From assembly GCA_030390025.1 (NCBI GenBank), contig CM059432.1, forward strand, positions 61,320,001 to 61,384,000: DNA of 64,000 nt, read 5' to 3'. The DNA comes from Squalus acanthias (lineage: Eukaryota). A program made the translations under genes and the position numbers. This document shows positions 1 to 63,775 of the stretch, piece after piece (the first letter of the stretch is position 1; each line of letters begins with the position of its first letter). The notes under the pieces are model-generated. The model had not been told where the DNA came from. It did not search any database and worked only from the letters and a program-made list of their open reading frames with translations.

Positions 1-1471
1 TCAGGCCTGTTTTTGAACCATCAGGGGTAAAATTTAATTTTCACAGGGACACAAGGAAAGGCAGTATTAAATCAACTGAACTTTGTACCTGCTGAGGACA
101 TTCACCACGTCATTCTATACTCCAGTGAGGTGTTCAGCAGGGAGATCAATTAGGTTACAATGGTACACGAGCTAGATATGCATGGAACTAAGGCAGGGTA
201 ACTGGGACTTCTTTATGTATTTACCATTATGTTGTCTGCCTTCAATCTCAACAGGCTGTTGCAGATGCACACTTTAAAGAGCACCAAAGCTTGCCAGATT
301 GCTTGAAGCCTTCATAGAATGGCATGAAGATGGGTGGCACTGGCCCAACTACAGAACTCCGATTGAGCAGGCGAGTAAATAATGATGGAGGAAGTTTTGT
401 GAGCTCCACATTTTCCCAGCTATCCAAATCAACGCAAAAGCTGCTAAGACAGTAAATATTTCCCAGTGCACTCCTCAGCATGCTCCATGCATATCCCTAG
501 AATTAGAAAGTGCACTTCTTGGCAGAACCTGAACCTGAAATTTCTTTGCACTTGGGAGGAAATAAGCTCATCTTTAGGATAACCCATCAGCAAACAAGCA
601 GTTGCTTCCAGCCTTTTTTGTTGAAAATTGAATATCAGGAAACAGTGTAAGCAGTTGCCATATGCACCAATCACATGGATCCATACTAATTTTAAAACTT
701 GCTGACCAAAGGCAAACTTAAGCGGGCTGATTCCAAGGTACAGAAAATGTCAGCAAAAAGAAGTGGTGTTTCCATAAATTAAAATTTTGAAAAAAGATTA
801 CAGAACATTCCTAGACTTTACTATAAAGCTATATTCATTTATGGGGGAAAATAAATGACAGTGAAGACTAACTCTGGTGGTCACAGACAGTCAATATTCC
901 TGTAAATGACAGGAGAAAAACAAACAAGGCTAGGACTTGGCATGAAGCCTTATCTGCAGCAAACCGGGAGAGATCACCAGACTGAGAAGGTAGTGCCATG
1001 GCAGAAATTTCTTAGAGATAATGTTACCAGGTAATTTGTTTTCTCCCTTGGGAATCCTACCAATATCCTATTTGTGTGTGAGGAAGTACGGTTTATTACC
1101 TTAAAAGGAAGTTATACACATCTAGTCCTTGCATGAGCAATATTGAAAGTACCTACTAAAGGTGAATGCGCCCACTCCCAGGTTATTAAAGCATTAAAGC
1201 AACACCGTGTGTATATGCAGATTAATGGGAAGACTAAACCCACCTTTGCAGATGTGATGGGGGCGGGGGGGGGGGGGGGAGAAGAAAAATTAAATCCTTA
1301 ATGTTGATGTTTGTAAAGAAAAGTAGCACCATGCTCATTTACTACAGACATAATAGGGTGTTTTTATGTTTTAATTATTCAGTTTGTATTTGATTTTTTT
1401 TTAAATCACTACTAACAAAGATTTTAAAAGAACATGAAGTTTCACTGGTACCGCTCAAGTGCTTTACTATT

Positions 1472-2235
1472 GGCCCAGAAATTCGTCCGAATACGGGAGA
1501 GTACGCACTGTGTACTCACCCATATTCGGTCCCGAAGTGCCGGTTTCCTGCATGCACTGCGCATGCGCGGGAAACCGGCACTTCCGGTATTGCGAAGGGG
1601 GCGGTTCCTAAGTGAACCGCGTGCGCACTACAGGCTGTGCGCACGCAGCACACTTAGTTTTTTTTTCAGGTTTGAACGCGAAGGTAAGTGTTGAAGATTT
1701 TACACATGAAAAAAGCAGGCGTAAGACACCTTTTAACAAGGTAAGTAGTTAATTAAGTATTATTTTAAAAAATTTTCAACAGGTTTATCTTTTTTAGAGA
1801 CTTTAAAGAAAGGTAAGTTTATTTTTATAACTTTTAAAAAGAATTTAAATTTTTTCAAAAATTTAAATTTTTGTTTAAAGTGGTTAATTTATTTAACTAT
1901 AGTTATTTTATTAATGCGATGGGTTTTTTTTAAATTTAATTGAGGTTTAGCTGTTCTTTTGGGGGCAATTTGTATTCATAGCTTTGACAGCTCTTCCTGT
2001 CAAAACTATGAATGAAAGATGGTGTGCTGCCATTGGCTCTAACTGGCTCACGTGATCCCAGAGGTCGCATCGAACTAACTGCGCCTCTGGGACACGCACA
2101 CACTGCGCGCCGGCACCAGGGAGAGGCCCAGGAACTGAAGTTTGTGTGGGCCAAAACCATAAAGGCAGGCGCGGAGTGCGATATCGCGGGGGATCCTTAC
2201 CCCCGCGGCAACCATCGAAGTCCAATTTCTGGGCC
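1472..2235 (+). mobile_element. MITE copy 1 (Harbinger-like non-autonomous DNA transposon)
   Basis: Perfect 12-bp TIR GGCCCAGAAATT/AATTTCTGGGCC; ATT on both flanks; homologous to 9933-10651 and 55248-55990. Confidence 0.85.
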
Positions 2236-2534
2236 ATTACTTTCTTTTTAACAATTTGTTACCTTTTAACTATTCTACTGGGTTTGTACTACTGTAAAAT
2301 GACTAGTTTTCAACATGAAGCACAGTCCATTTCTGAATTTTTGAAATAATTATCTACTTTTACCAAAAGCACAAAGCAACATCCAGACTAAGAAAATCTG
2401 ATTAGCAGAAATTAATGTGCTTTTCTGGATTAACCTGGACCCAAAGTGTTTCAATGAAGCTGTTTTTAAATTAAAAGTCATTCTTCCATTTTTAAGGTTA
2501 ATCCATTTTGAATCAAATACCAAAAAATTATTAC

Positions 2535-2646
2535 CTTTATGATCTGCACCATCTGGATTCAAATGCATTCTCTTCTGACATTCGGAGCAGCTCATTAGAA
2601 ATCTGGTCACCGCTTCTCGTGGTAAAAAGGCATAGGTCTCTGAAAT
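2535..2646 (-). CDS. NOL4: NOL4 coding exon 3 (112 bp); gene continues beyond the window start
   Basis: TTTAG acceptor; ISETYAFLPREAVTRFLMSCSECQKRMHLNPDGADHK; GTAATA donor (phase 1); in frame with exon 2. Confidence 0.93.
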
Positions 2647-3881
2647 CTAAAGTTAATCACAAAATGTAATAGAAAAATATGTTGGGAAGGCAGATTATCA
2701 TCCTCAATCATCCAAATGTAATTCAAAGTTTATATTCTAAAACAGGAGCTCACTAGAAATGAACTTCTGCTAAGCAGGTATGTTTCTACCATTACTTTAT
2801 TACATAAAAGGTAAAACAAAGCACATTTGTTAACAAAGGTATATAAAAATCTTCCTATCCATACAGACACTAGAATTCCTTCATAATCAGGGGAAAAAAT
2901 AATTTTGGGAAAGGTTCCATTTCCATCTTTACACAGGTCTGGTCGATGTCAAGAAGACACCCAAGTTCTTTTTAAAAGCTTACAAATAATGCAATATCAA
3001 TGGTAACTTGTGCTCCGTTACTATTTTTTACATCTAGACTTCAGTGCTTTCTGAATCGCTTCGATCTGTTGATCATTTGTAAAGTGAGTGAATAGAGGCT
3101 TTCCACTTAGAATTTTAAAATGTAGATATTACACCTTTAATATGAAGATCTAATTGAATGGATCAATAGAAACAATATGCAACAAAAACAAAAGTTAATA
3201 AGTGGGTGCTGAAAATGTAAGCAGAAAACCTTTGAAGAGCCTCAGAAGGTTCAACACATTACCAACCATTTCTAAGGGTGAATTGGCAGAGGACAAAGAG
3301 ATAGGTAAAAATGAAGGGAAAGAAAACAAGATGCAAACATGAGTCTGCAATTGGCAGAAAAACACCAGACCTCCTGTTTGATGGCTGCTGAAGTCAAGGT
3401 GTTGTTCTATGAGTTATGTGCAATTTCAAGGTACCATCCTCAGATCAGCATTGCACCATCCTGCAAGTTGATACAGCCTTGTTGCAGACCACAGCTGACC
3501 ATTACGGTCACTGCATGTGCCAGTCCTACGCTGCATGGTGGCTGCAGAAGGCTAGGACATAGCTCTGCAACTGCCCCTCTGACCCAGACACCAAGGCCAA
3601 GTAGGTGTGCCAGGGTCTGTAGAAGTGGCATCTTGGCAGGTGCAGACAATTAGGCAACGCTGGCTGTTGATCACACTGGCAAGCCTTCATTTATGCTGCG
3701 CCACTGAAACAATGACATATTCTCAAGGAAGCATCCAAAATGATGGTTAATCAGACATACATATCTTATTGATGCCATCAGTTCTCCTGTCCTCCCAACT
3801 TCCTCAGGGAAGAGTTTGCCAAAGTGAGACATTTTCACCTCTGTCTGCAGATGTGGGTGTGTAGCTATCAGCAGACACATG

Positions 3882-11902: not shown

Positions 11903-12494
11903 AAAAAAGCAGGAAATGAAATAGATTTTAAAGCAAGTTTAGGGCTGGGAAAAGGGGGAGGGGATGAAAGAACAAAAGGGAAGGTCAGTGATAGGATAGA
12001 AAGCAGGAGGGATTAAGAGACATTAAGAGATATTCAAGGCAAGAGGAGGTGGAAATGGGACAGGTTGAGGAACAAAGGATGGCTCTAGATGAAGTGTGAA
12101 CTGAGCAGGCAGAATGAAGGACAGCTGACATGTGGGAGGTGAAGAAAAAAAGGGCCAAACAAAAGTGTGGATAAAAATATATATACACATGTGATGGGGG
12201 CCAGGGTTATGATCTGAAATTGTTGAACTCTATGTTGAGTCCAAATGGCTGTAGAGTGCCTAATCGAAAGATGAGGTGCTGTTCCTCGAGCTTACGCTGA
12301 GCTTCCATGGAACAATGCAAGAGGCCGAGGACGGTGAGGTCTGAGGGGGAATGGAGCGGAGAATTAAAGTGACAGGCCACCGGGAGCTCGGGGTCCCCCT
12401 TACGGACTGAACGGAGGTGTTCCGCAAAGCGGTCACCCAATCTGCGTTTGGTCTCCCCATTGTAGAGGAGACCACATCGTGAGCAGCGAATACA

Positions 12495-12912
12495 TAGAAA
12501 CATAGAATCTAGGAGCAGGAGTAGGCCATTCGGCCCGTCGAGCCTGCTTCGCCATTCAATACGATCATGGCTGATCATCCAAATCCAGTACCCTGTCCCT
12601 GCTTTAATCCCCACAGTACACATATCCCACCCTACCCCCGTAACCCCACGTATTTAATTCCCCCTAACATATCCCATCCTATCCCCATAACCCCACATAT
12701 TTAATCCCCCCTAACACTAAGGGTCAATTTATCATAGCCAAATCAACCTAACCCACACATTTTTGGACTGTGGGAGGAAACCGGAGCACCCGGGAGGAAA
12801 CCCACGCAGACACGGGGAGAATGTGCAAACTCCACACAGACAGTCACCTGAGGTCAGATTCGAACCCGGGTCTCTGGCGCTGTGAGGCACCAGTGCTAAC
12901 CACTATGCCACC
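12495..12912 (-). mobile_element. tRNA-derived SINE (HE1/V-SINE-like) with CR1 3' tail
   Basis: A box TGGCATAGTGG, B box GGTTCGAATC, core GTGGAGTTTGCACATTCTCCCCGTGTCTGCGTGGGTTTCC; tail matches local CR1 3' ends; inserted in the Penelope GIY-YIG domain. Confidence 0.88.
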
Positions 12913-15856
12913 GTATACTAAATTGCAGGAAGTACAAGTAAATCGCTGTTTCACCTGGAAGGGGTGTTTGGGGCCCTGGACAGTGGAAAGGGGGGAGGTA
13001 TAAGGGCATGTGTTACATCTCCTGCGCTTGCACGGGAAGGTGCCGGGCAAAGGGGAAGGGGTGCTAGGGATGGTAGAGGAGTGGACTAGGGTGTCGTGGA
13101 GGGAGCGGTCCCTGCGGAATGCTGAAAGGGGAGGTGAGGGGAAGATGCGTTTGGTGGTGGGATCACGCTGGAGGTGGCGGAAATGGTGGAGGATGATCCG
13201 CTGAATGTGGAGGCTGGTGGGGTGAAAGGTGAGGACAAGGGGAACTCTATCGTGGTTCCGGGAGGGAGGGGCAGGGGTGAGGGCGGAAGTGCGGGAGATA
13301 GAATGGACACGGTCGCGGGCCGTGTCAACCACAGTAGAGGGGAATCCTCGGTTGAGGAAAAAGGAAGACATGTCGGAAGCACTGGTATGGAAGGTGGCAT
13401 CGTCAGAGCAGATGCGGCGGAGACGGAGAAACTGGGAGAATGGAATAGAGTCCTTACAGGAGGCGGGGTGGGAGGAAGTGTAGTCCAGGTAGCTGTGGGA
13501 GTCAGTGGGCTTGTAGTGAATATTTGTCAATAACCTATCCCCAGAGATGGAGACGGAGAAGTCGAGGAAAGGAAGGGAAGAGTCGGAGATGGACCATGTG
13601 AAGGTGAGGGAAGGGTGGAAATTGGAAGCATAGTGAATGAAATTTTCTAGTTCAGGGCGAGAGCAGGAGACAGCACCGATACAGTTATCAATGTACCGGA
13701 AAAAGAGGTGAGGGAGGGGACCAGAGTAGGACTGGAACAAAGAGTGTTCCACATATCCCACGAAAAGGCAGGCATAGCTAGGACCCATGCGGGTACCCAT
13801 AGCAACACCTTTGATTTGGAGGAAATGAGTGGAGTCAAAGGAGAAGTTGTTCAATGTGAGAACAAGTTCAGCCAGGCGGAGGAGGGTGGTGGTGGATGGG
13901 GACTGGTTGGGCCTCTGTTCAAGGAAGAAGCGGAGCGCCCTCAGGCCATCCTGGTGGGGGATGGAGGTGTAGAGGGATTGTACGTCCAGTGAAAAGGAGG
14001 CGGTTGGGGCCAGGAAACTGTTAAAGTGGCGGAGGGCGTCGGAAGAGTCGCGGATGTAGGTGGAAAGAGACTGGACAAGGGGAGAAAAAATAGAGTTGAG
14101 ATAGGAAGAGATAAGTTCAGTGGGGCAAGAACAGGCTGAAACGATGGGTCTACCAGGGCAGTCCTGTTTGTGGATCTTGGGAAGGAGGTAGAAACGGGCT
14201 GTGCGGGGTTGAGGAACTATGAGGTTGGCGGCCGTGGGGGGGGAAGATCTCCAGAGGAGATGAGGTCAGTGACAGTCTTGGATACGGTGGCTTGATGTTC
14301 GGTAGTGGGGTCATGGTCCAGGTGGAGGTAGGAGGAGGTGTCGGAGAGTTGGCGTTCAGTTTCCGCTAGGTACCTTTTTAGAAGTTGGAGCCTGATTACA
14401 TCATTTGGATCCCAATGCGATTTTTACCCCAGGTCGCACAAGTCATGCACAGTGCTGGACCCCCCAGTAAAACCTGACAGCAGGCAGGATCGGGGCCAGA
14501 AGAGGTCCAGTTGAGTTACAATATTTCCGTTAATGTGGGTCCCGGGGGGGCAGCGGGTGAGGTGGGTGAAGAACAGAAGTCCTCCTCCAAGCTCCACAAG
14601 AAAACCATGGGCCTCTGGACCCCCCTTCACCACCTACCTTATGCCAGTGACCGTTCACCTGGGTTCCCGGCAGCGGCCTCTTGCCCGCTTCTGCCCTCCA
14701 AGCACCTCATCATTTCCACCTAGCGCGGGCGGGTGTGCTTCCTCCTACATGGTAATGAAGCCCGGTAGTTACAATTGTCCGAGCCACATGCTGGCGCCAT
14801 CATGGGTACTTCCTGCCTGCCCTAGCCTCCACATGCATGGAGATAAAAATCGGTGCTTTAGAAACTAAGTAGTATTGTCCCACTTTTAAAAAACAATCCA
14901 ATAGTTATTTTATAATTGGATATGAAAAGGTAGGTCAAAAGAGAAAAATTGGTTAACATCAACCACAATCAAGAAGTTAGAAGAGGTCCAATTTGAAGAC
15001 ATTGAGGACGGATCAGATGAATATGGTTTAGTACATGGAACAAATAACCAGACATCTCTGTACAGGGACAATGGTAAAAATGAAATGCAGCTGGTTGGAG
15101 ATTTCTTTGATTAATGCCATTTTGCGCATTAGACTAATTTGCCTATAATAAATATTTCAATAAAAGTACAAGGGAAAATAAGCACTCCAATATCTCTAAC
15201 ATCTAGGCATTAACTAGTCTACAATCTACAAGAAGTATAATTTAAAATCTAACACTTGGAATGAGTTAGGCAAGATAAAAAGTCTCTCAATTTTAACAGT
15301 ATTGCAAAGTAGAACTTGCTGAAATTAAAGATAGAATGATTTTTGACAACAATCTTATAGGACTCAGTTCCATTTCCATACCCAAGATGGTGGCAGATTT
15401 TCATTGTCATGCTCTTCATGATTTTGTAGTAGCGACCTCATGTATTTTCTAATCACCAGTTCACTGTTGCACAATAGCCCGAGCTAAATCTCACCTGTTT
15501 CTTCACTACAGCTTCTGCCCTTTTACGAACTCAACTTCACAGATAATAATAGAGCTAGGTTTGTGGATGGATGGACAACTAAAAGGTTTGACCCCCATCT
15601 CCTTCCTGGCAGAATTTTTGTGCAGTGTATACTTTGAAACAACTTTGCATTTCAGATTAACACCTTAGCTTTTATTAAACAAACTGGCTAACAAAGACAG
15701 GGCATATTCTGCATGGCAAGTAAAGCTGAGACTGCGGTATGATATTATTCACATCAGTTTACAAAAGAACTTCAAGTTTTATATTTTTTATACACTGTGG
15801 TTTTCTTTATTAAAACTGTGATCCATTAAGTTGACCAAGGACATAGTTAAAAAAAA

Positions 15857-17408: not shown

Positions 17409-19615
17409 GGACCAACAGTAGCATAGTGGTTATGTTATTGGACTAATAATCCAGAAGCCTAGACTAATGATCTGGAGATGTGAGTTCAAATCCCACCACA
17501 GCAACTGGGGAATTTAAATTCAGTTAATTAAATAAATCAGGAATAAAAAACTTGTATCAGTAATGGCAACCATAAATCGATCGGATTGTCGTAAAAACCC
17601 CATCTGGTTCACTAATGCCCTTTAGGGAAGGAAATCTGCCGTCCTTACCTGGTCTGGTCTATATGTGACTCCAAACCCACAGTAAAGTGGTTGACTCTTA
17701 ACTGCCCTCTGAAATGGCCTAGCAAACCACTAGCAGTTGTAAAAAAACGCTATGAAAAACAATAAGAATGAAACGGGACCGACCACCGGCACCGACTACG
17801 GACCCGGCACACCCAGCCCAGTCGCCCACTCCTCACTAACACCTCACTTGTGCCCATGAAGTCTCATGGGCAAGGAAACCTCCTGCTGATTACCATCCCT
17901 CTGCTGATGAATCAGTACTTAGAAGGAGATCTACCATCCTTACCTGGTCTGATCTATATTAACTCCAGACACTCACCAATCTACCTGTCGCAGATGCATC
18001 TGTCCATGACAGCACTGGTAGTAGTGACCACCGCACAGTCACTGCGGAGACGAAGACCCGTCTTCTCACTGAGGACACTCTCCATCGTGTTGTGTGGCAC
18101 TACCACCGTGATATCAAGAAACGGCTGAGCGTACTGGATACAGCAAAGGCTGTGGGCCCCGACAACATCCCAGCTGTTGTGCTGAAGACTTGTGCTCCAG
18201 AAACAGCTATAACACTGGCATCTATCCAACAATATAGAAAACTGCCCAGGTATGTCTGTCCACAAAAAGCAGGACAAATCCAATCCAGCCAATTACCACC
18301 CCATCTGTCTAATCTCAATCATCAGCAAAGTGATGGAAGGTGTTGTCGACAGTGCTATCAAGCAGCACTTACTCACCAATAACCTACTCACTGATGCCCA
18401 GTTTGGGTTCCGCTGAGACCACTCAGCTCCAGGCCTCTTTACAGCTTTGGTCCAAAAGAGGTGAGGGGAGTGACTGCCCTTGACATCAAGGCAGCATTTG
18501 ACCGAGCGTGGCATCGAGGAACCCTAGTAAAACTGAAGTCAATGAGAATCAGGCGGAAAACTCTCCACTGGCTGGAGTCATACCTAGCACAAAGGAAGAT
18601 GGTTGTGCTCGTTGGAGGTCAATCACCACAGCCCCAGGAGTTCCTCAGGGCAGTGTCCTAGGCCCAACCATCTTCAGCTGCTTCATCAATGACCTTCCCT
18701 CCATCATAAGGTCAGAAGTGGAGATGTTCGCTGATGACTGCACAGTGTTCAGTGCCATTCGCAACTTTTCAGAAAATGAAGCAGTCCATGCCCACATGCA
18801 GCAAGACCTGGATGACATTCAGGCTTGGGCTGATAAGTGGCAGGTAACATTCGCACCACACAAGTGCCAGGCAATGACTATCTCCAACAAGCTAACCACC
18901 GCCCCTTGACATTCAACGGCATTACCATCGCCGAATCCCCCACCATCAATATCATGGGGGTCACCATTGACCAGAAACTGAACTGGACCAGCCACATAAA
19001 TACTGTGGCAACTAGAGCAGGTCAGAGGCTGGGTATTCTGCAGCAAGTGTCTCACCTCCTGACTCCCCAAAGCCTTTCCACCATCCACAAGTCAGGAGTG
19101 TGATGGGATACTCTCTACTTGCCTGGATGAGTGCAGCTCCAACAACACTCAAGAAGCTCGACACCATCCAAGACAAAGCAGCCCGCTTGATTGGCACCCC
19201 CTCCACCAGCTTAAACATTCACGCCATCCACCACCGGCGTACCATGGCTGCAGTGTGTACCGTCTACAAGATGCACTGCAGCAACTCGCCAAGGCTTCTT
19301 CGGCAGCACCTCCCAAACCCGCGACCTCTACCACCTAGAAGGACAAGGGCAACAGGCGCATGGGACCACCACCACCTCCAAATTCCCCTCCAAGTCACAC
19401 ACCATCCTGACTTGGAAGTATATCGCTGTTCTTTCATCATAGCTGGGTCAAAATCCTGGAACTCCCTCCCTAACAGCACTGTGGGAGTACCTTCACCACA
19501 AGGACTGCAGCGGTTCAAGAGGCCAGCTCACCACCACCTTCTCAAGGGCAACTAGGGATGGGCAATAAATGCTGGCCTTGCCAGCAACACCCACATCCCA
19601 TGAACAAATTTTTAA
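17409..19615 (+). mobile_element. tRNA-headed CR1-group LINE, internally deleted copy
   Basis: A box TAGCATAGTGG 17419-17429, B box GAGTTCAAATCC 17482-17493, then endonuclease and RT remnants ([15 protein letters not shown]); homologous to 50478-53741. Confidence 0.88.
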
Positions 19616-49909: not shown

Positions 49910-50477
49910 TATAAAGCATCTTGGTTATCAAAATAGGCTAAAAGAGTTGAGACTCTACATATAGAGAAGCATAGACTTGGGGTGAACTGATTGAGGTTTG
50001 TAAGATAATGCAGGGAATAGATTGTGTTCCAGTTGACAGTTTGCTCCAATTAAATAGGTTAGGGAGGACCAGGGGTCACAATTGTAAGTTGTATAAGGCC
50101 AGATCTAGGTTAGATGTCAGGAGGTAGTTCTTTTCCCAGAGAATAGTGAACCTCCAGAATAGGCTGCTGTCTTGTGCAGTGGATGGCGATTTGCTGAATT
50201 ACTTCAAGCGAGAGCTGGACCTGTTTCTGGCTGGGGCGGACATCACCTCTTACAAAACGTAGGTAGTTCACGCAATTCAGGGCCAGAGTGATCTCCTGGA
50301 TTAGTTTCGATAGCCTAGATGGGTCGGAGAGGAATTTCCCAGATTTTTTTCCCCCAAATTGACCAGGGTTTTTACCTGGTTTTTCTCCTTTCCCAGGAGA
50401 TCACATGGTTTTCAGTGGGTGGAGAGTGTATATATTGTGATACACATGGTATCACAATTGTGTGGGAAAGGCTGGAT

Positions 50478-53400
50478 TTTGTTTTATTCATTCATGGGAT
50501 GTGGGCGACGCTGGCAAGGCCAGCATTTATTGCCCATTCCTAGTTGCCCTTGAGAAAGTGGTGGTGAACCACCTTCTTGAACTGCTGCAGTCCGTGTGGT
50601 GAAGGCACTCCCACAGTGCTGTTAGGTAGGGAGTTCCAGGATTTTGACCCGGCGACAATGAAGGAACGACCATATACTTTCAAGTCAGGATGGTGTGTGA
50701 CTTGGAGGAGAACTTGGAGGTGGTGGTGTTCCCATGCGCCTGCTGCCCTTGTCCTTCTAGGTAATAGAGATCGCGGGTTTGGGAGGAGCTGTCCGAGAAG
50801 CCTTGGCGAGTTGCTGCAGTGTATTTTGTAGATGGTACACACTGCAGCCACGGTACACCGGTGGTGGAGGGAGTGAATGTTTATGGTGGTGGATGGGGTG
50901 CCAATCAAGCGGGTTGCTTTGTCTTGGATGGTGTCGAGCTTCTTGAGTGTTGTTGGAGCTGCACTCATCCAGGCAAGTGGAGAGTATTCCATCACACTCC
51001 TGACTTGTGCCTTGTAGATGGTGGAAAGGCTTTGGGGAGTCAGGAGGTGAGACACTCGCCGCAGAATACCCAGCCTCTCCTTTATGTGGCTGGCCCAGTT
51101 AGGTTTCTGGTCAATGGTGACCCCCAGGATATTGATGGTGGGGGATTCGGCGATGGTAATACCATTGAATGTCAAGGGGCGGTGGTTAGGCGCTCGCTTG
51201 TTGGAGATAGTCATTGCCTGGTACTTGTGTGGCGCGAATGTTACCTGCCACTTATCAGCCCAAACCTGAATGTCGTCCAGGTCTTGCTGCATGCGGGTAT
51301 GGACTGCTTTATTATCTGAGGAGTTGCGAATGGCAATGAACTCTGTGCAGTCATCAGTGAACATCCCCACTTCTGACCTTATGATGGAGGGAAGGTCATT
51401 GATGAAGCAGCTGAAGATGGTTGGGCCTAGGACATTACCCTGAGGAACTCCTGCAGCGATGTCCTGGGGCTGTGATGACTGACCTCCAACCAGCACAACC
51501 TTTGTGCCAGGTATGACTCCAGCCAGTGGAGAGTTTTCCCCCTGATTCCCATTGACTTCCGTTTTACTGGGGCTCCTTGATGCCACACTTGGTCAAATGC
51601 TGCCTTGATGTCAAGGGCAGTCACTCTCACCTCACCTCTGGAATTCAGCTCTTTTGTCCATATTTGGACCAAGGCTGTAATGAGGTCTGGAGCCGAGTGG
51701 TCCTGGCGGAACCCAAACTGGGCATCAGTGAGCAGGTTATTGGTGAGTAAGTGCTGCTTGAGAGCACTGTCAACGACACCTTCCATCACTTTGCTGGTGA
51801 TTGAGAGTAGACTGATGGGGCGGTAATTGGCCGGATTGGAATTGTCCTGCTTTTTGTGGACAGGACATACCCGGGCAGTTTTCCACATTATCGGATAGAT
51901 GCCAGTGTTATAGCTGTACTGGAACAGCTTGGCTAGTGGCGCGGCTAGTTCTGGAGCACATATCTTCAGTACGACAGCCGGGATGTTTTCGGGGGCCACA
52001 GCCTTTGCTGTATCCAGTGTGCTCCGCTATTTCTTGATATCATGTAGAGTGAATCGAATTGGCCGAAGACTGGCTTCTGTGGTGGTGGGGACCTCAGGAA
52101 GAGGCCGATATGGATCATCCACTCGGCACTTCTGGCTGAAGATGGTTGCAAACGTGTCAGCTTTGTCTTTTACACTCACGTGCTGGATCCACCATCATTG
52201 AGGATGGGGATATTCATGGAGCCTCCTCCTCCCGTTAGTTGCTTAATGGTCCACCACCATTCATGACTGGATGTGGCAGGACTGCAGAGCTTTGATCTGA
52301 TCCGTTGATTGTGGGATCACTTAGCTCTGTCTATAGCATGCTGCTTCCGCTTTTTAGCATGCATGTAGTCCTGTGTTGCAGGTTCCCCAGGTTCTCACCG
52401 CATTTTTAGGTACGTCTGGTGCTGCTACTGGCATGCTCTTCTACACCCCTTATTGAAACAGGGTTGGTCCCCTGGCTTGATGGTAATGGTAGAGTGAAGG
52501 ATATACTCAACCATGAGGTTACAGATTGTGGTGGAATACAATTTTGCTGCTGCTGATGGCCCACAGTGCCTCATGGATGCCCAGTTTTGAGCTCCTACAT
52601 CTGTTCTGAATCTATCCCATTTGGCATGGTGGTAGTGCCACACAGCACGATGGAGGGTGTCCTCAGTGTGAAGATGGGACTTCGTCTCCACAATGACTGT
52701 GTGGTGGTCACTGCTACCAATGCCATCATGGACAGATGCATCTGTGAGAGGTAGAGGTCAAGTAGGTTTTTCCCTCGTGTTGGTTCTCTCACCACCTGTC
52801 GCAGGCCCAGACTGGCAGCTATGTCCTTCAGGACTTGGCTAGCTCGGTCAGTAGTGGTGCTACCAAGCCACTCTTGGTGATGGACATTGAAGTCCCCCAC
52901 CCAGAGTACATTCTGTGCCCTTGCTACTCTCAGTGCTTCTTCCAAGTGGTGTTCAACATGGAGGAATACTGATTCATCAGCTGAGGAAGGGTGGTAGGTG
53001 GTAATCAGCAGGAGGTTTCCTTGCCCATGCTTGACCTGAAGCCATGAGACTTCATGGGGTCCGGAATCAATGTTGAGGACTCCCAGGGCCACTCCTTCCC
53101 AACTGTATACCACTGTGCCACCACCCCTGGTGGGCCTGTCCTGCCGGTGGGACAGTACATACCATGGGATGGTGATGGAGGAGTCTGGGACATTGATTCT
53201 GTGAGTATAATTATGTCAGGCTGTTGCTTGACTGGTCTGTGGGACAGCGCTCCCAATTTTGGTACAAGTCCCCAGATGTTGGTGAGGAGGACTTTGCAGG
53301 GTCGACTGGTCTGGGTGTGCCGTTGTCATGTCTGTAGCCGGTGCCGAGGTCGATGCCAGGTGGTCCATCCAGTTTTATTCTTATTATTGTTATTGTTTTT

Positions 53401-53741
53401 CGTAGCGGTTTTTTACAACTGAGTGGCTTGCTAGGCCATTTCAGAGGGCAGTTAAGAGTCAACCACAATGCTGTGGGTCTGGAGTCACATATGGGCCAGA
53501 CCAGGTAAGGATGGCAGATTTCCTTTCCTAAAGGACATTAGTGAACCAGATGGGTTTTTACGACAATCCGATAGTTTCATGGTCACCATTACTGATACTA
53601 GCTTTTTATTCCAGATTCATTTAATTAACTGAATTTAAATTCCCCAGGTACCGTGGTGGGATTTGAACTCACATCTCCGGATCATTAGACCAGGCTTCTG
53701 GATTATTAGTCTAATAACATAACCACTATGCAACCGTTCCC
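50478..53741 (-). mobile_element. Full-length tRNA-headed LINE: one APE-endonuclease + RT ORF, no ORF1
   Basis: A box 53723-53733, B box 53659-53670; VLLTNIWGL...PDIIILTES, VGDFNVHH, NYRPISLLS, LDIKAAFD, GVPQG, MFTDD, stop at 50540; TSD GGAT at 50474-50477 and 53742-53745; several frameshifts. Confidence 0.9.
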
Positions 53742-53889
53742 GGATGAACCAGAGGGTCTTTACCTGGCCGTCATTGTTCGTATATTCTGGTATTTGTAAA
53801 TGACCCAGAAAATGTACAGGAAATAGAAGTCTTAGCCTCCTTGGGGGACAGCAACCACAGAATGATAACGTTTAACAGGGGTTAGGAGG

Positions 53890-54770
53890 TGAGCCATTTT
53901 CCTTGCCATTTGAGCCAAACCTGGTCCAGTTAAGCTTCTGGTAATGGTGAACCTCAAGATGTTGATGGTGCGGGACACAGAGATGATGGTGCCGTTGAAA
54001 GTTGGGGGAGATGGTTGGGCTTTTTTGCCAGGAACTTACGCGGCAAGAACATTAGCTGCCATCTGCCGGCCAAACCTGGATGTTATTCAACATCCTGGAT
54101 ATGAATGGAGCTGAATCATCAGTGAACAGCTCCAATCTTGACCTTGTGACAACGGAAAGTTCATTGATAAAGCAGCTAAAGATGGTTGGGCCTTGTATGC
54201 TTTCCTGAGGAACCCCTTCAGCAATATCTTGGGGTTGTAATGATTGGGCTCTGATAACCACAACCATTGTTTTATTTGTTCTTGGGCAATGCTTGCAAAT
54301 CAGCATTTATAATGAATCATGTGGCATGGGACTATATTCACCTGTAGGCCAGGCCAGTTAGGGTGATAGGTTCCCTTCCCTGAAGGTCATTAGTGAACCA
54401 GTTGGGCTTTTATGAGAATCCAGCAGCATTCATGGTCATTTATTTGGTGCCAGTTCACAAATTGAATTCAATTTCACAACTTGCCATTGTGGGAGTTGAT
54501 CTTGCATCTGGATTATTAGCCTAGTACCATAAACCACGACACTACCATATCCCTGTCATCTTCCTGTGTGTCAGGTATGAGTCCAGCCACTGGAGGGTTT
54601 TCCATCTGAAGCCTATTGACAGTTTTGCTAGGGCTCCTTGGTGTCATAATTGATCAAATGCTGGCTTGACATCAAGGGCTACTGCCCTCATCTCTCTGGC
54701 ATTCATCTCTTGCATTCATGTCTGGATTAAGGTTGTAATGAGGTCTGGAGCCAAGTGGTACTGGCACTGT
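53890..54770 (-). mobile_element. Older fragment of the same LINE family containing a SINE with the related tRNA head (~54300-54553)
   Basis: GVPQESIQGPTIFSCFIN remnant; the insert shares ATTAGTGAACCAG and CTGGATTATTAG with the LINE head. Confidence 0.7.
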
Positions 54771-55990: not shown

Positions 55991-57130
55991 ATTATCAGCC
56001 CCTGTGTTATCCCAGTTATCTTTTGCTACTACAGGAAAATACATGTAGCATGATTGGTAGCTGCAAAGAAGACCAGTATACCTGAACCTGTTCTCTGAAT
56101 CAGAGTAAGTTCTACATGCGTATGACGGAAAAGAAGCCTTGTTGGTGCCCAATTTTCTTTCTTTATTCCTCTTCTCCAGTCGGTTATGACTCATGCTGGA
56201 GTACAGTTCCATGGACACCAACCATCCTCAGGTACTTTGCCGAATTAGCTATTCTTCATCTATAAACTTGAATAATGAAGCCTTGATTTTCTGTGGTAGC
56301 ACAACCACCGTGTGGTGGGGCAGCGCATTGCTGACTCCACCATAGTTTCTGGGATCAGCTTAATTGGAATAATCAGTGCAAGCTCCAGGCATTGGAAATG
56401 CCTCTCAATGGGTGTTTATTTGTTTTGGGAACAGAGTGTTAAGCTGTGAGTTTGGTGAGTGAGGGAGTGAATCTTAAAGGTTAATCACTTTTTTTTAATA
56501 TAAAATCTAGTCTTGTGTGCTTGCAATTAGCATTTAACTTACATTTAAATTTACTGTTTCAAGTTTTAAGTTTCTTCCAGGCTTGGGCAGGGCTAAGCAA
56601 GCTCTGTGCTGGAGAGCAGGTGAGAGTAATTAATTAATTAACTGGTCTAATCTGGTTCTGTAACTGCCAGAGAGCTCACTTATTTAAATCTCAGCCGTAT
56701 AAATAATGGAGGCTAGAGTGCAGTTTGTCACGGAGTGCAGCTCGGAACAGAGTGTTAAGCTGCGAGTTTGGTGAGTGAAGGAGTTCGGGGAGGGAGGTGT
56801 TCCTTTCTTTTTTCTATCTTTGTCAGCTTCCAGGAGAGCAGGAGCTAAAAAGCTGCACAAGAGGGGACAGAGAACCAGCGGGAGTTCGACTCTGTGACAC
56901 CCCCCAACCGCATCTGGAGAAAAATAAAAAGTGACATCACAGGGAAAAGGGTAAGTGATTGGTTGGTGAGTATTTTGCTCACTTCCCTTATCTTTTAAAG
57001 CCCAGGAAATTTATTAGTAATTGTAAGGTTTCATTAGTACTAGTTTACTTGCAGTAATAAATCTTATTAGGTGGATTAGGGTTTGTTAATTATTAATTAA
57101 TAAAAATAAATTAATTAAGACTCCATAAAG

Positions 57131-58081
57131 ATGGCAGGGCAGGTGATGTGTTGTGACTGCAGTATGTGGGAGCTCCTGGATGCCAGTGTGATCCAGGACG
57201 AACACGTCTGCGGTAAGTGTCTGTGGCTTGAGGAGCTTCGGATCAGAGTTGATGAGCTGGAGGCCGAGCTGCAGACTCTGCGATGCATCAGGGAGGGGGA
57301 AAGTTACCTGGACACTTTATTCCAGGAGGCAGTCACACCCCTTAGGATAGGGTCTTCTGATTTGGTCAGTGGTCAGGGACACGAGGATGTGACTGCGAGT
57401 GAGGCAGGTATGGGGACCCAGGAGGTGAAGGAGCCTCAGCCTTTGCAATTGTCGAACAGGGTTGAGGTTCTTGCAGCCTGTATGGATGAAAGCGGTGGCT
57501 GCAGGGTGGATGAGCAAACTGACCATGGCACCGAGGTACAGGAAGCCATTCAAGCAGGGGGAGTTAATAGGAATGTAGTGGTAATTGGGGACAGCACAGT
57601 CAGGGGGATAGATACAGTTCTCTGCGGCCAAGAACGAGAGTCCAGAGGGCTGTGTTGCCTGCCTGGCGCCAGGTTTCAGGACATCTGCTCTGGGCTGGAG
57701 AGAAACTTGCAATGGGAGGGGGAGGTGCCAGTGGTCGTGGTCCACGTAGGTACCAACGACATAGGTAGAACTAGGAAAGAGGTTCTGCTGAGACAGTATG
57801 AGCACCTAGGGGCTAAATTAAGAAGCAGAACGTCAAGCGTAATAATGTCTGCATTATTACCTGAGCCACGAGCAAATTGGCATAGGGTAAATAAAATTAG
57901 AGAGATGAATGCGTGGCTCAAAGACTGGTGTGGGAGAAATGGGTTTCAGTTCCTGGGGCACTGGCACCAGTACTGGGGAAAGTGGGATCTGTATCGTTGG
58001 GACGGTCTTCACCTGAACCGTGCTGGGACCAGTGTTCTGGCAAGTCATATAACTAGGGCGGTAGAGAGGGCTTTAAACTAA
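57131..58081 (+). CDS. CR1 ORF1p: zinc finger, coiled coil and SGNH esterase (316 aa, open)
   Basis: CCDC...CGKC, LEELRIRVDELEAEL, VIGDS, HVGTND, DGLHLN motifs. Confidence 0.88.
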   Translation: MAGQVMCCDCSMWELLDASVIQDEHVCGKCLWLEELRIRVDELEAELQTLRCIREGESYLDTLFQEAVTPLRIGSSDLVSGQGHEDVTASEAGMGTQEVKEPQPLQLSNRVEVLAACMDESGGCRVDEQTDHGTEVQEAIQAGGVNRNVVVIGDSTVRGIDTVLCGQERESRGLCCLPGARFQDICSGLERNLQWEGEVPVVVVHVGTNDIGRTRKEVLLRQYEHLGAKLRSRTSSVIMSALLPEPRANWHRVNKIREMNAWLKDWCGRNGFQFLGHWHQYWGKWDLYRWDGLHLNRAGTSVLASHITRAVERALN

Positions 58082-58092
58082 ATATTGGGGGC

Positions 58093-61064
58093 ATGGGATC
58101 AAATTTGGGAAGATGTGGTAATTCAAAGATTAGAGACAAGGCAATAGAGAAAGGTATTAATATGGGAAATGATAAACAGACCATGACAGGAAGGGATAGA
58201 GAGTACAAATCTAAGAGTAAATCAATAGATAAGGCTAGAGGTTACAAAAATAATAAAAGGACAAAACTAAAGGTTCTGAATCTGAATGCACGTTGCATTC
58301 GAAACAAAATAGATGAACTGATAGCACAAATAGAAATAAATAAATATGGTCTGATAGCCATTACAGAGACATAGCTGCAGGATGACAAAGATTGGGACCT
58401 GAATATTGAAGGGTACATGACATTTAGGAAGGACAGGAAGGTGGGAAAAGGTGGAGGGGTGGCTCTGTTAATTAATGATGGTATTAGCACAATAGAGAGG
58501 GATGACCTAAGTTCAGGAAACCAGGATGTAGAAGCGGTTTGGGTAGAGATGAGAAATAATAAAGGTAAGAAGTCACTTGTGGGAGTGGTGTACAGGCCCC
58601 CTAACAGTAACCACATGGTAGGATGGAGTATAAAGGAAGAAATAATGGGAGCTTGTCAGAAGGGTACGGCAATAATCATGGGGGATTTTAATCTGCATAT
58701 AGACTGGAAAAATCAGATGGGCAAAGGTAGCCTAGATGAAGAGTTCATGGAATGTTTTCGGGATAGTTTCTTACAACAGCACATTCTGGAGCCAACCAGT
58801 GAGCAGGCTATACTAGACCTGGTATTGTGCAACGAGATAGGATTAATTAATGACCTCATAGTGAAGGCGCCCCTAGGTAGCAGCGATCATAATATGATTG
58901 AATTTTACATTCAGTTTGAGGGAGAGAAGAGTGGGTCCAAGACTAGTATTTTAAACTTAAATAAGGGCAATTATGAGGGCATGAAAGCAGAGCTAGCTAA
59001 AGTGAACTGGCAAATTAGGTTAAGGGATAGGTCAATAGAGTTGCAGTGGCAGACATTTAAAAGGATATTTCAAAATACACAGAATATATACATTCCAACA
59101 AGAAAGAAAAATTCCAAGGGGAGGACCCACCATCTGTGGTTAACTAAAAAAGTTAAAGATAGTATTAAACTTAAAGAAAAAGCATATAATTGCGCAAAGA
59201 TGGGTGGCAGGTCAGAAGATTGGACAGAATATAAAAAACAGCAAAGAATGACTAAAAGATTAATGAGGAGAGAAAAATTAGAGTACGAGAGAAAGCTAGC
59301 TAGAAATATAAAATCAGATAGTAAGAGTTTCTATTGATATTTAAAAAAGAAAAGAGTTAACAAAGTGAGCGTTAGTCCTATAAAAAGTGAGTCTGGGGAA
59401 TTAATAATGGAAAATAAGGAGATGGCAGTTGAATTGAACAGGTATTTTGCATCGGTCTTCACTATAGAGGATACAAGTAACATCCCAGAAATAGCTGTAA
59501 ATCAGGAAATGGAAGGGAGGGAGGAACTCAAGAAAATTATAATCACCAGGGAAGTGGTACTGAGCAAATTGTTGGAGCTGCGGGCTGACAAGTCCCCGGG
59601 TCCTGATGGACTTCATCCTAGGGTCTTAAAAGAAGTGTCCAGTGAGATAGTTGATGCATTGGTTTTAATTTTCCAAAATTCCCTAGATTCGGGGAAGGTT
59701 CCATTAGATTGGAAAATAGCGAATATAACTCCTTTATTCAAAAAGGGAGGGAGACAGAAAGCAGGAAACTACAGGCCAGTTAGCTTAACGTCTGTCATAG
59801 GGAAGATGTTGAAAGCTATTATTAAAGACGTTATAGCAGGGCATTTAGAAAAGTTCAAAGTAATCAGGCAGAGTCAACATGGTTTTGTGCAAGGGAAATC
59901 ATGTTTAACCAATTTATTGGAGTTCCTTGAGGAAGTAACATGTGCTGTGTATAAAGGTGAACTGGTGGGTGTACTGTACTTAGATTTCCAGAAGGCATTT
60001 GATAAGGTGCCACATCAAAGGTTATTGCGGAAAATAAAAGCTCATGGTGTAGGGGGTAACATATTGGCATGGATAGAAGATTGGCTAGCTAACAGGAAAC
60101 AGAGAGTAGGCATAAATGGGTCATTTTCTGATTGGCAAGATGTAACGAGTGGTGTGTCACAGGGATCAGTGCTGGGGCCTCAACTTTTTACAATTTATAT
60201 AAATGACTTGGATGAAGGGTCCGAAGGTATGGTTGCTAAATTTGCTGTTGACACAAAGATAGGTAGGAAAGTAAATTGTGAAGAGGACATAAGGAGGCTA
60301 CAAAGGGATATAGATAGGTTAAGTGAGTGGGCAAAGATCTGGCAGATGGAGTATAACGTGGGAAAATGTGAAATTGTCCATTTTGGCAGGAAGAATAAGA
60401 AAGAAGCATATTATCTAAATGGTGAGAGATTGCAGAGCTCTGAGATGCAGAGGGATCTGGGTGTCCTAGTGCATGAATCACAAAAGGTTACTATGCAGGT
60501 ACAGCAAGTAATTAGGAAAGCTAATAGAATGTTATCATTTATTGCGAGGGGAATTGAATACCTAAAAGTAGGGAGGTTATGCTTCAGTTGTACAGGGCAT
60601 TGGTGAGACCACATCTGGAGTACTGTGTACAGTATTGGTCTCCTTATTTAAGGAAGGATGTAAATGCGTTGGAGGCAGTTCAGAGAAGGTTTACTAGACT
60701 AATACCTGGAATGGGCGGGTTGTCTTATGAGGAAAGGTTGGACAGGCTAGGCTTGTATCCGCTGCAGTTTAGAAGAATAAGAGGATACTTGATTGAAACA
60801 TATAAGATCCTGAGGGGTCTGGACAGGGTGGATGTGGAGGGGACGTTTCCTCCTGTGGGAGAATCTAGAACTAGGGGTCACTGTTTAAAAATAAGGGGAC
60901 GCCCATTTAAGACAGAGATGAGGAGAAATATTTTCTCACAGAGGGTCATGAGTCTTTGGAACTCTCTTCCTCAGAGGACGGTGGAAGCAGAGTCTTTGAA
61001 TATTTTTAAGGCAGAGGTAGATAGATTCTTGGTAAGCAAGGGGGTGAAAAGTTATTGGGGGTAG
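58093..61064 (+). pseudogene. CR1 ORF2 (APE endonuclease + reverse transcriptase), disrupted
   Basis: AITET, VYRPP, GDFN, SDH; RT motif FADD is changed to FAVD; two stops and one frameshift. Confidence 0.9.
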
Positions 61065-61484
61065 GTGGGAATGTGGAGTAATCAGATCAGCCATGATCTT
61101 ATTGAATGGCAGAGCAGGCTCGAAGGGCCGAGTGGCCTACTCCTGCTCCTACTTCGTATGTTCGTATGTATGTTCATATGTAAAATAGCACATAGGTATA
61201 GGTTTGAAAGACTTCCGGCAGATCAAAGAGCCACAACAGAAAACATAGTTTTGGATGCAGCAAAAAAAAAACTGATTCGAAAAATGTCAGAGAGGAGTGC
61301 TGATAAGTCGAGACCCTCACCTTTGTGGATACAAGTGAAAAAAGTGTGGCTTCAGGAGACCAAATATAAAAAGGAGGCCCTCTTTGCAACTGACAAAAGG
61401 AGGGCCCCAAGGAGAGCTACAGCATAGAAGTGGAAGGAGATAGCCTGGGCAGTCAATGACATGTCTTCCATTCAGCACATGACT

Positions 61485-62795: not shown

Positions 62796-63775
62796 CTCAA
62801 TTAAATTGGCTGAAGACTGGTATCTGTGAAGGTGGGGACCTCAGGAGGAAGCCGAGAAGGATCATCTACTCGGTACTTCTGGCTGAAGATAGTTGCAAAC
62901 GTTTCAGCCTTGTCTTTTGCATTCACGTGCTGGGCTTCGCCATCATTGAGGATGGGGATATTCATGGCGCCTCCTCCTCCTGTTTGTTGCTTAATTGTCC
63001 ACCACCATTCATGACTGGATATGGCAGGACTGCAGAGCTTTCACCTGATCTGTTGGTTGTGGGATTGCTTAGCTATGTCTATAGTATGCTGCTTCCACTG
63101 TTTAGCATGCATGTGGTCATTCCTACCAATACTGTCATAGGCAGGTGCATCTGCGACAGCTAGATTGATGAGGATGAGGTCAAGTAGGTTATTCCCTCAT
63201 GTTGGCTCTCTCACCTCAAGCCCAGTCTCGTAGCTATGTCTTTTAGGATTCGACCAGCTCGGTCAGTAGTGGTACTATCAAGTCACTTTTGGTGATGGAC
63301 ATTGAAGTCCCCCACCTCGAGCATATTCTGTGCCCTGGCTACCCTCAGTGCTTCCCCCAAGTGGTGCTCAACATGGAGAAGTACTGATTTATCAGCTGAG
63401 GAGGGCAGTAGGCGGTATGTTTGGCCTGAAGCCATGAGACTTCATAGGGTCTGGAGTCAATGTTGAAGACTCCCAGGGCCACTCCCAGCCGACTATATAC
63501 CACTGTGCCCCACCTTTGGTGAGTATGTCCTGCCGGTGGGATGGGAAATATCTTGGGATGGTGACGGAGGAGTCTGGGATGTTGGCTAATAGGTATGATT
63601 CTGTATGACTATATGTCAGGCTGTTGTCTGACTAGTCAGTAGGACAGCTCTCCCAACTTTGGCACTAGTCCCCAGATGTTAGTGAGGAGGACTTTGTAGG
63701 ATCAATTGGGCTGGGTCTGCCTTCATTGTTACCGATACCTAGGTCGCAGCAGAGTGGTCCGTACAGATTTATTCT
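62796..63775 (-). mobile_element. Endonuclease-region fragment of the tRNA-headed LINE family
   Basis: Colinear with 52055-53380, with an internal deletion. Confidence 0.85.

Follow-up and report, generated by a model that had tools for sequence, protein, structure and literature searches.

The 64,000-nucleotide stretch of DNA analyzed here (the window) is rich in CR1, L2, and Penelope-type repeats, families that suggest a cartilaginous-fish-type genome. On its minus strand, running from 53741 to 50478, lies a decayed LINE copy of a ~3.3-kb family, with a tRNA-derived head, a non-coding leader, a frame for an endonuclease and a reverse transcriptase (RT), and an A-rich tail. Its features and those around it are as follows.

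53742..53745, plus strand: GGAT duplication, right; the host CR1 tail resumes here
53655..53741, minus strand: tRNA-derived head with a long variable-arm insert (Rfam tRNA alignment; same start in other copies, the family 5′ end being 53741)
53723..53733, minus strand: A box (type 2 Pol III promoter), here differing from the family form at one letter (sequence; column conservation)
53659..53669, minus strand: B box (sequence; core unvaried in 29/29 rows spanning it)
53413..53654, minus strand: non-coding leader, ending at the last in-frame stop (53415-53413); also present in short SINE-type derivatives
53401..53403, minus strand: ACG, putative near-cognate start
50540..53412, minus strand: endonuclease and RT frame, which is interrupted here but spans 973 codons at the family level
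52595..53295, minus strand: AP-type endonuclease region (Pfam PF14529/PF03372; catalytic motifs conserved in 91-100% of rows)
51100..52026, minus strand: RT region, approximate ends (Pfam PF00078)
50526..50531, minus strand: AATAAA polyadenylation signal (sequence; intact in 44/47 family tails)
50478..50539, minus strand: 3′ UTR and A-rich tail, with a variable T-run site (one T here)
50474..50477, plus strand: GGAT duplication, left; host CR1 tail upstream
17409..19615, plus strand: second family copy, internally deleted, which retains the head, the leader, and the RT and ends in T5-A5

As proposed in a first-pass annotation of this DNA, the element starts with SINE-like A and B boxes (TTGCATAGTGG at 53733-53723 and AGTTCAAATCC at 53669-53659, respectively). 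The head is tRNA-like and carries both boxes, as in tRNA-derived SINE2 elements, but its score with the tRNA model is below the Rfam gathering score of 29: 53734-53655 gave a weak match (15.1 bits, E 3.8), in which the variable arm is enlarged by an insert of 22 nt, and the less decayed copy L038 gave 23.7 bits (E 0.015). ARAGORN found no tRNA gene in the 64-kb window. Pfam models for the endonuclease (PF14529, E 5e-10) and the RT (PF00078, E 2e-17 and 2e-12) matched the studied copy in the expected order. The leader had been given as ~430 nt, which is the distance to the first endonuclease motif, but the open frame starts ~330 nt in. Similarly, the single reading frame of ~2.8 kb holds for the family, but in the copy under study it is split into stop-free pieces of 106, 206, 110, 199, and 350 aa.

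Insertion into the tail of a CR1 element

GGAT is present on both sides of the whole unit, as annotated, but a 4-nt duplication is weak and lies at the level of chance in the family. Target duplications measure 0 to 4 nt in 26 head-to-tail copies, no longer than in chance pairings, and ~6% of random flank pairings give a duplication of at least 4 nt; the 26-copy count leaves out the window's own GGAT, where the A-run is broken. The other claim made about this site, that removal of the unit restores the host CR1 tail, was borne out by 11 other copies of that tail, which show both sides contiguous. All 11 are readable at the insertion point; ~8 clearly run on into what lies beyond the element in the window, and the remaining ones do so with small deletions or changes. 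Because most other copies of the CR1 tail continue with the far-side sequence, we conclude that the element inserted as one piece.

Inheritance of head, leader, and frame as one unit

We searched the 3.7-Gb genome with a query composed of the head, the leader, and the start of the endonuclease. It returned 12,293 candidates, and the best 40, which were scored, were all contiguous across the three parts. Twenty copies were fetched whole: 11 are continuous over 3.2-3.3 kb, three have later insertions, three are internally deleted, and three are cut at the 3′ side. Such a query favors headed copies, and we therefore made two unbiased selections, one with the head alone and the other with the endonuclease protein alone. 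The head selected 29 loci of 40 among the matches listed, the window copy itself being excluded; 20 of them extend into coding sequence, eight consist of head, leader, and tail with differing breakpoints, and one stops. With the endonuclease, 40 copies of 150 among the matches listed were taken, 20 for top rank and 20 for long open frames or low rank. Twenty-one of these begin no more than 52 nt from the 5′ end, 12 of them no more than 3 nt from it, and the other 19 are 5′ truncated, with ends scattered from positions 111 to 561. All-against-all comparison of the upstream flanks of these 40 copies revealed no alternative common 5′ sequence at the junction. There is no ORF1, as only ~330 nt with stops in all frames precedes the endonuclease-RT frame. 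A different 5′ UTR or an ORF1 in full-length copies, which the annotation had named as the finding that would speak against a hybrid family, was thus looked for and not found.

In 28 copies that have both the head and the RT, head variants co-segregate with variants in the RT half (Mantel rho 0.53, P 0.0002; 3 head sites, 35 RT sites), at a distance of 1.8 to 3.2 kb. The same holds for head plus leader versus the ORF (rho 0.45, P 0.0002; 8 head-and-leader sites). The contiguous copies and the head-RT linkage uphold the proposal of a heritable head-and-ORF unit. The family displays the hallmarks of LINEs, i.e., no LTRs, an A-rich 3′ end, and a 5′-truncation ladder, and it encodes an AP endonuclease followed by a non-LTR RT in one frame, as in APE-type LINEs. 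SINEs are short and non-coding, and with 3.3 kb and 973 codons the family is neither; only its head-leader-tail derivatives are.

The copy at 17409-19615 had been cited as having the same head-leader-ORF junction. It does share the head, the leader (reference 8-396), and the start of the frame, but the junction is not intact: most of the endonuclease has been lost in several deletions, and a piece of the leader is repeated. Many copies (this one and among L132-L160) carry multiple internal deletions of varied size, by eye more than their age alone would explain, which could reflect RT template jumping. Another decayed family copy, 5′ truncated and internally deleted (reference 361-1685), is found in the window at 62804-63775 (minus strand). 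The sequence common to the upstream regions of the truncated copies L201 and L207 was considered as another 5′ UTR and rejected, since by eye it is an inverted piece of the element itself. These inverted 3′ pieces are located just upstream of the truncated copies (L201:600-1070 and L207:600-980) and point to inversion or head-to-head insertion.

Coding capacity and selection in headed copies

Taking the commonest codon per column, with 17 and then 45 copies, yielded one open frame from column 330 to 3248, of 973 codons; the other two frames of the majority sequence have 52 and 58 stops. A disrupted family ORF, which had been put forward as the mark of a long non-autonomous element, was therefore not found. 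The 17 copies differ from the column majority by 2.4-5.7%. The search for copies with an intact ORF, also suggested at the outset, gave none among the 60 loci read, a sample of the family; the longest stop-free frames are 154 to 510 aa.

The proposed dN/dS analysis revealed purifying selection on the variants shared by head-bearing copies. Among the 28 copies with both parts, variants present in at least four copies have a dN/dS of 0.20 versus 0.82 for private ones (P 4e-8), the former comprising 37 synonymous, 25 non-synonymous, and 0 stop changes and the latter 284, 779, and 52, respectively. Private non-CpG changes are neutral, with a synonymous share of 0.24 equal to the site share, whereas that of the shared changes is 0.53, with no stops. 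The contrast persists when transitions and transversions are taken apart (P 0.009 and 0.019). The sole long shared deletion in these copies is 12 nt and in frame. Deletions near columns 1001-1006, present in five to six copies, count against our best explanation. Because the shared variants show purifying selection and the head is linked to the RT, the head-bearing sources made a working protein. Several source elements, each of them headed, diversified while keeping it.

We consider it very likely that the element is a real, heritable, once-autonomous SINE-headed LINE. One could propose instead a long non-autonomous chimera of a SINE head and a LINE body, with an open frame that is merely inherited and with a master lacking the head as the source of its amplification in trans. 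All the copies seen are broken, template switching is known to add SINE heads to LINE derivatives (parts of PMC5786205), and a rare master could be missed when only the best 40-150 candidates are scored per search. However, such a chimera is largely refuted by the purifying selection on variants common to head-bearing copies and by the linkage between head and RT. No other 5′ end occurs in the 40 endonuclease-selected copies, and the same order of head, leader, and endonuclease is found in an older layer, ~70% alike (see below), which makes this explanation very improbable. An event restricted to the window locus, the chance insertion of a SINE beside a 5′-truncated LINE, would fit a 4-nt duplication that alone is no better than chance, but it is refuted by the findings that the CR1 tail is split cleanly around the entire head-and-ORF unit and that the same junction occurs at dozens of independent loci.

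Leader and start codon

The first in-frame AUG of the frame is codon 286, past the endonuclease, and the leader contains six or more AUGs. ACG is the commonest codon 4 in only 19 rows, with ACA in 9 and ATG in 6. Frame keeping from the ACG (29/39) is no better than in the non-coding leader. Folding of the leader is unremarkable (z 0.22), and by eye the leader does not resemble the printed Deu, Meta, and UCON3 domains.

T-runs, 3′ end, and the polymerase

In vertebrates, runs of at least four T terminate transcription by Pol III. No TTTT on the sense strand is common to the family, 12 of the 17 copies having none and the other five having one. When the frame was resampled synonymously by third-position frequencies, 3.45 TTTT were expected and 0 observed (P 0.016), and 18.0 runs of TTT or longer were expected against 5 observed, with 0/1000 resamplings as low. 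Runs of A4, C4, and G4 were as expected under this null, and only sense-strand T-runs were depleted. A mononucleotide shuffle gave P 0.019 for TTTT and <0.001 for runs of TTT or longer. With the family's own codon usage (1.83 TTTT expected, P 0.12) or dinucleotides (P 0.11-0.42) as the null, which absorb part of the T-run effect tested, the absence of TTTT is non-significant, and a general low-T/low-TT composition could explain it. TCTTT, TATTT, and TGTTT are absent. None of five other LINE or Penelope frames in the window (CR1/L2/Penelope) is depleted in T-runs, and among 17 metagenome relatives, some of which include non-coding frames >150 codons, a single one shows a deficit of TTT, and a deficit of TTTT is seen in none. 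The Phe content is 18/973 in the family versus 24-34 in nine relatives. Two conventional elements of the window deserve mention: a near-complete two-ORF CR1 (57119-61170, plus strand), which would make a suitable conventional control and whose ORF1 we take to be GDSL-esterase-like by its motif, and a presumably Penelope-like element (12207-14265, minus strand) with an RT, a GIY-YIG-like end, and a 473-aa open frame.

Directly before the A-tail is a T-run of 1-10; 22/44 tails have one T and 12/44 have four or more. Terminators of T+ SINEs are described as T≥4 or TCT≥3 that shorten in daughter copies and lengthen with age (parts of PMC11240701). The family's order of AATAAA, T-run, and A-tail matches the T+ SINE layout, but a full terminator of T≥4 is present in only those 12 tails.

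Judging from these sequence features, Pol III transcription of the family RNA is the best-supported mechanism, and we regard it as probable. Alternatively, Pol II might have transcribed the headed autonomous LINE, either starting at a cryptic promoter inside it or as host read-through cut at the tRNA-like fold in an RNase P-like manner; such cutting would parallel the HDV-like ribozymes of R2, RTE, and Ingi, and the low number of T-runs would be a compositional trait. LINEs are held to be Pol II transcribed, with 5′ self-cleavage in six clades (parts of PMC5786205). An AATAAA with an A-tail fits Pol II too, the stricter nulls remove the TTTT signal, and most tails are without a full terminator. 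The promoter of non-LTR elements is called “pol II (or pol III)” in a passing remark of one review. Other features argue against Pol II: T-runs alone are depleted, on the sense strand alone, unlike in neighboring elements and relatives; the B-box core is invariant; the T-run is placed exactly before the A-tail; and a capped mRNA would be poorly served by an ORF that lacks an AUG and follows at least six AUGs in the leader. A Pol II transcript is, in our view, somewhat unlikely.

SINE derivatives and an older layer

Short derivatives made of head, leader, and tail exist and act as the SINE of the headed LINE. In the older layer, ~70% alike, many SINE-type copies of this composition share a common breakpoint, and two copies, L212 and L214, have head, leader, and endonuclease. 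The search for older full-length headed copies gave only these two, both of which end in the endonuclease and are too decayed for a replicate of the T-run analysis. Since the head-leader-endonuclease order is present in the older layer, it predates the main burst. Adjoining the main element in the window is an older SINE-type copy, ~70% alike (54270-54560, minus strand), located inside an equally old decayed copy of the LINE lineage (~53920-54770). Contigs of four other organisms, which speak to presence only, contain the whole element, with all 30 bins covered, and the short form; joints that skip ~2.9 kb are seen in them.

Relatives of the encoded protein

The nearest proteins are unnamed endonuclease-RTs of ~934 aa from environmental assemblies (P0001-P0007), with 42-44% identity over the C-terminal 350 aa. 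The RT placement suggested by the annotation was obtained in part: in a quick tree of 87 RT rows, without labelled clade references and with no L2 RT, the family is a single group (100) nested within a larger one that also holds P0001-P0009 (SH-aLRT 96), apart from the window's classic CR1 (HER1-type). From motifs, we take the family to be CR1-group-like. The nearest solved structures to its RT are those of L1 and R2 only, and the ESM Atlas returned generic RT clusters only.

The upstream DNA of the close metagenome relative L090 has an in-frame ATG, no A or B boxes, and TTTT runs; this one locus suggests that head capture is derived. ARAGORN found no tRNA gene in 47 metagenome loci, and a scan of 46 metagenome relatives for the A/B-box pattern gave one match, in the distant relative L126. 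There, the A/B-box-like pair (L126:1089-1156) lies ~1.5 kb upstream of the RT and may be due to chance. Two other distant metagenome relatives share a conserved 5′ UTR motif of ~60 nt (L055:480-560 and L114:540-620), possibly a structured RNA or a promoter element.

Discussion

The locus is best described as a decayed member of a single-ORF LINE family that was once autonomous and has a fixed tRNA-derived 5′ head, whose 3.3-kb RNA was, as its sequence leads us to favor, made by Pol III. Several known systems resemble it in part. T+ SINEs (B2, Dip, Ves, Can, EreA_0TD) likewise have a tRNA head with A and B boxes, an AATAAA, a variable T-run, and an A-tail, often with a shortened terminator. In contrast with the family, which is 3.3 kb long and encodes its own endonuclease-RT, they are <600 bp, non-coding, moved by L1, and reported from placentals alone (PMC11240701). 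In the Bov-B/Bov-A/Bov-tA system and in RTE- and Vingi-derived SINEs, internal deletion of the partner LINE likewise leaves a SINE composed of the two ends, 5′ and 3′, of that LINE; however, the LINE is headless, and the SINE gains its tRNA head only once the deletion has occurred (parts of PMC5786205), whereas here the coding LINE carries the head. In the same parts of that work, SINEs are stated to be unable to encode protein, and the listed sources are only RTE, Ingi, Vingi, and R2.

The absence of ORF1 is already known in LINEs: Ingi, Vingi, and ORF1-less CR1/L2/Crack elements have, like the family, one endonuclease-RT ORF in ~3.3 kb (parts of PMC3894237 and PMC4120745). In the canonical two-ORF CR1/L2 LINE, on the other hand, ORF1 lies upstream of ORF2. 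The pairs SacSINE1 (Deu)/L2-2_CM, CmiSINE (CORE), and HE1 (V)/HER1 of cartilaginous fishes are also tRNA-headed with a CR1-group LINE tail, but these SINEs share only the tail with the partner LINE (parts of PMC5499810 and PMC3747384). Identity of the head with SacSINE1/Deu was rejected by eye, as the body of the element has no Deu domain when set against the supplement 1 alignment of PMC7245038. The nearest proteins, P0001-P0007, have a close relative with readable upstream DNA, L090, which differs from the family by its ATG start and lack of boxes. We found no description of a coding LINE with a fixed tRNA head in the openly accessible papers searched.

For the more complete proposal of an autonomous “coding SINE,” we put the chances at about even. 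Its 3.3-kb coding RNA would be made by Pol III, would acquire its poly(A) tail in the manner of T+ SINEs, and would need neither a cap nor an AUG for translation; the element would have persisted in cartilaginous-fish-type genomes through two age layers or more and would have shed SINEs by internal deletion. TFIIIC and Pol III would start at the first G, and Pol III would read through 3.3 kb because T-runs were purged, stopping at the terminal T-run. The RNA would be polyadenylated via AATAAA, as are mammalian T+ SINEs. Translation of the uncapped RNA might begin at a non-AUG start, for which the ACG at codon 4 is the leading candidate, or ribosomes might re-initiate once they have passed short upstream frames. 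The protein would then copy the RNA by target-primed reverse transcription, which is established LINE biology, with no or very short target duplications and many 5′-truncated or internally deleted copies as the outcome. As an internal deletion keeps the promoter and the tail, each such deletion would be a ready-made SINE. As for its origin, template switching may have joined a head from a SINE or a tRNA to an AUG-started single-ORF LINE like the invertebrate-type relatives.

In the usual classification, LINEs are coding and transcribed by Pol II, and SINEs are non-coding and transcribed by Pol III; this family combines the promoter and 3′ end of a SINE with a LINE enzyme under selection. Even with a Pol II transcript, the headed-LINE architecture is one that we did not find in the literature searched. 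The family also offers a one-step route to the birth of a SINE, in which a headed LINE loses its central part, and it traces one SINE body to its source, something that is usually obscure. To our knowledge, Pol III is not expected to make protein-coding messages. If this RNA was a Pol III product, it would represent a naturally occurring mRNA of that polymerase, encoding a protein of ~970 residues, and whether, and how, long uncapped Pol III transcripts are translated would become testable.
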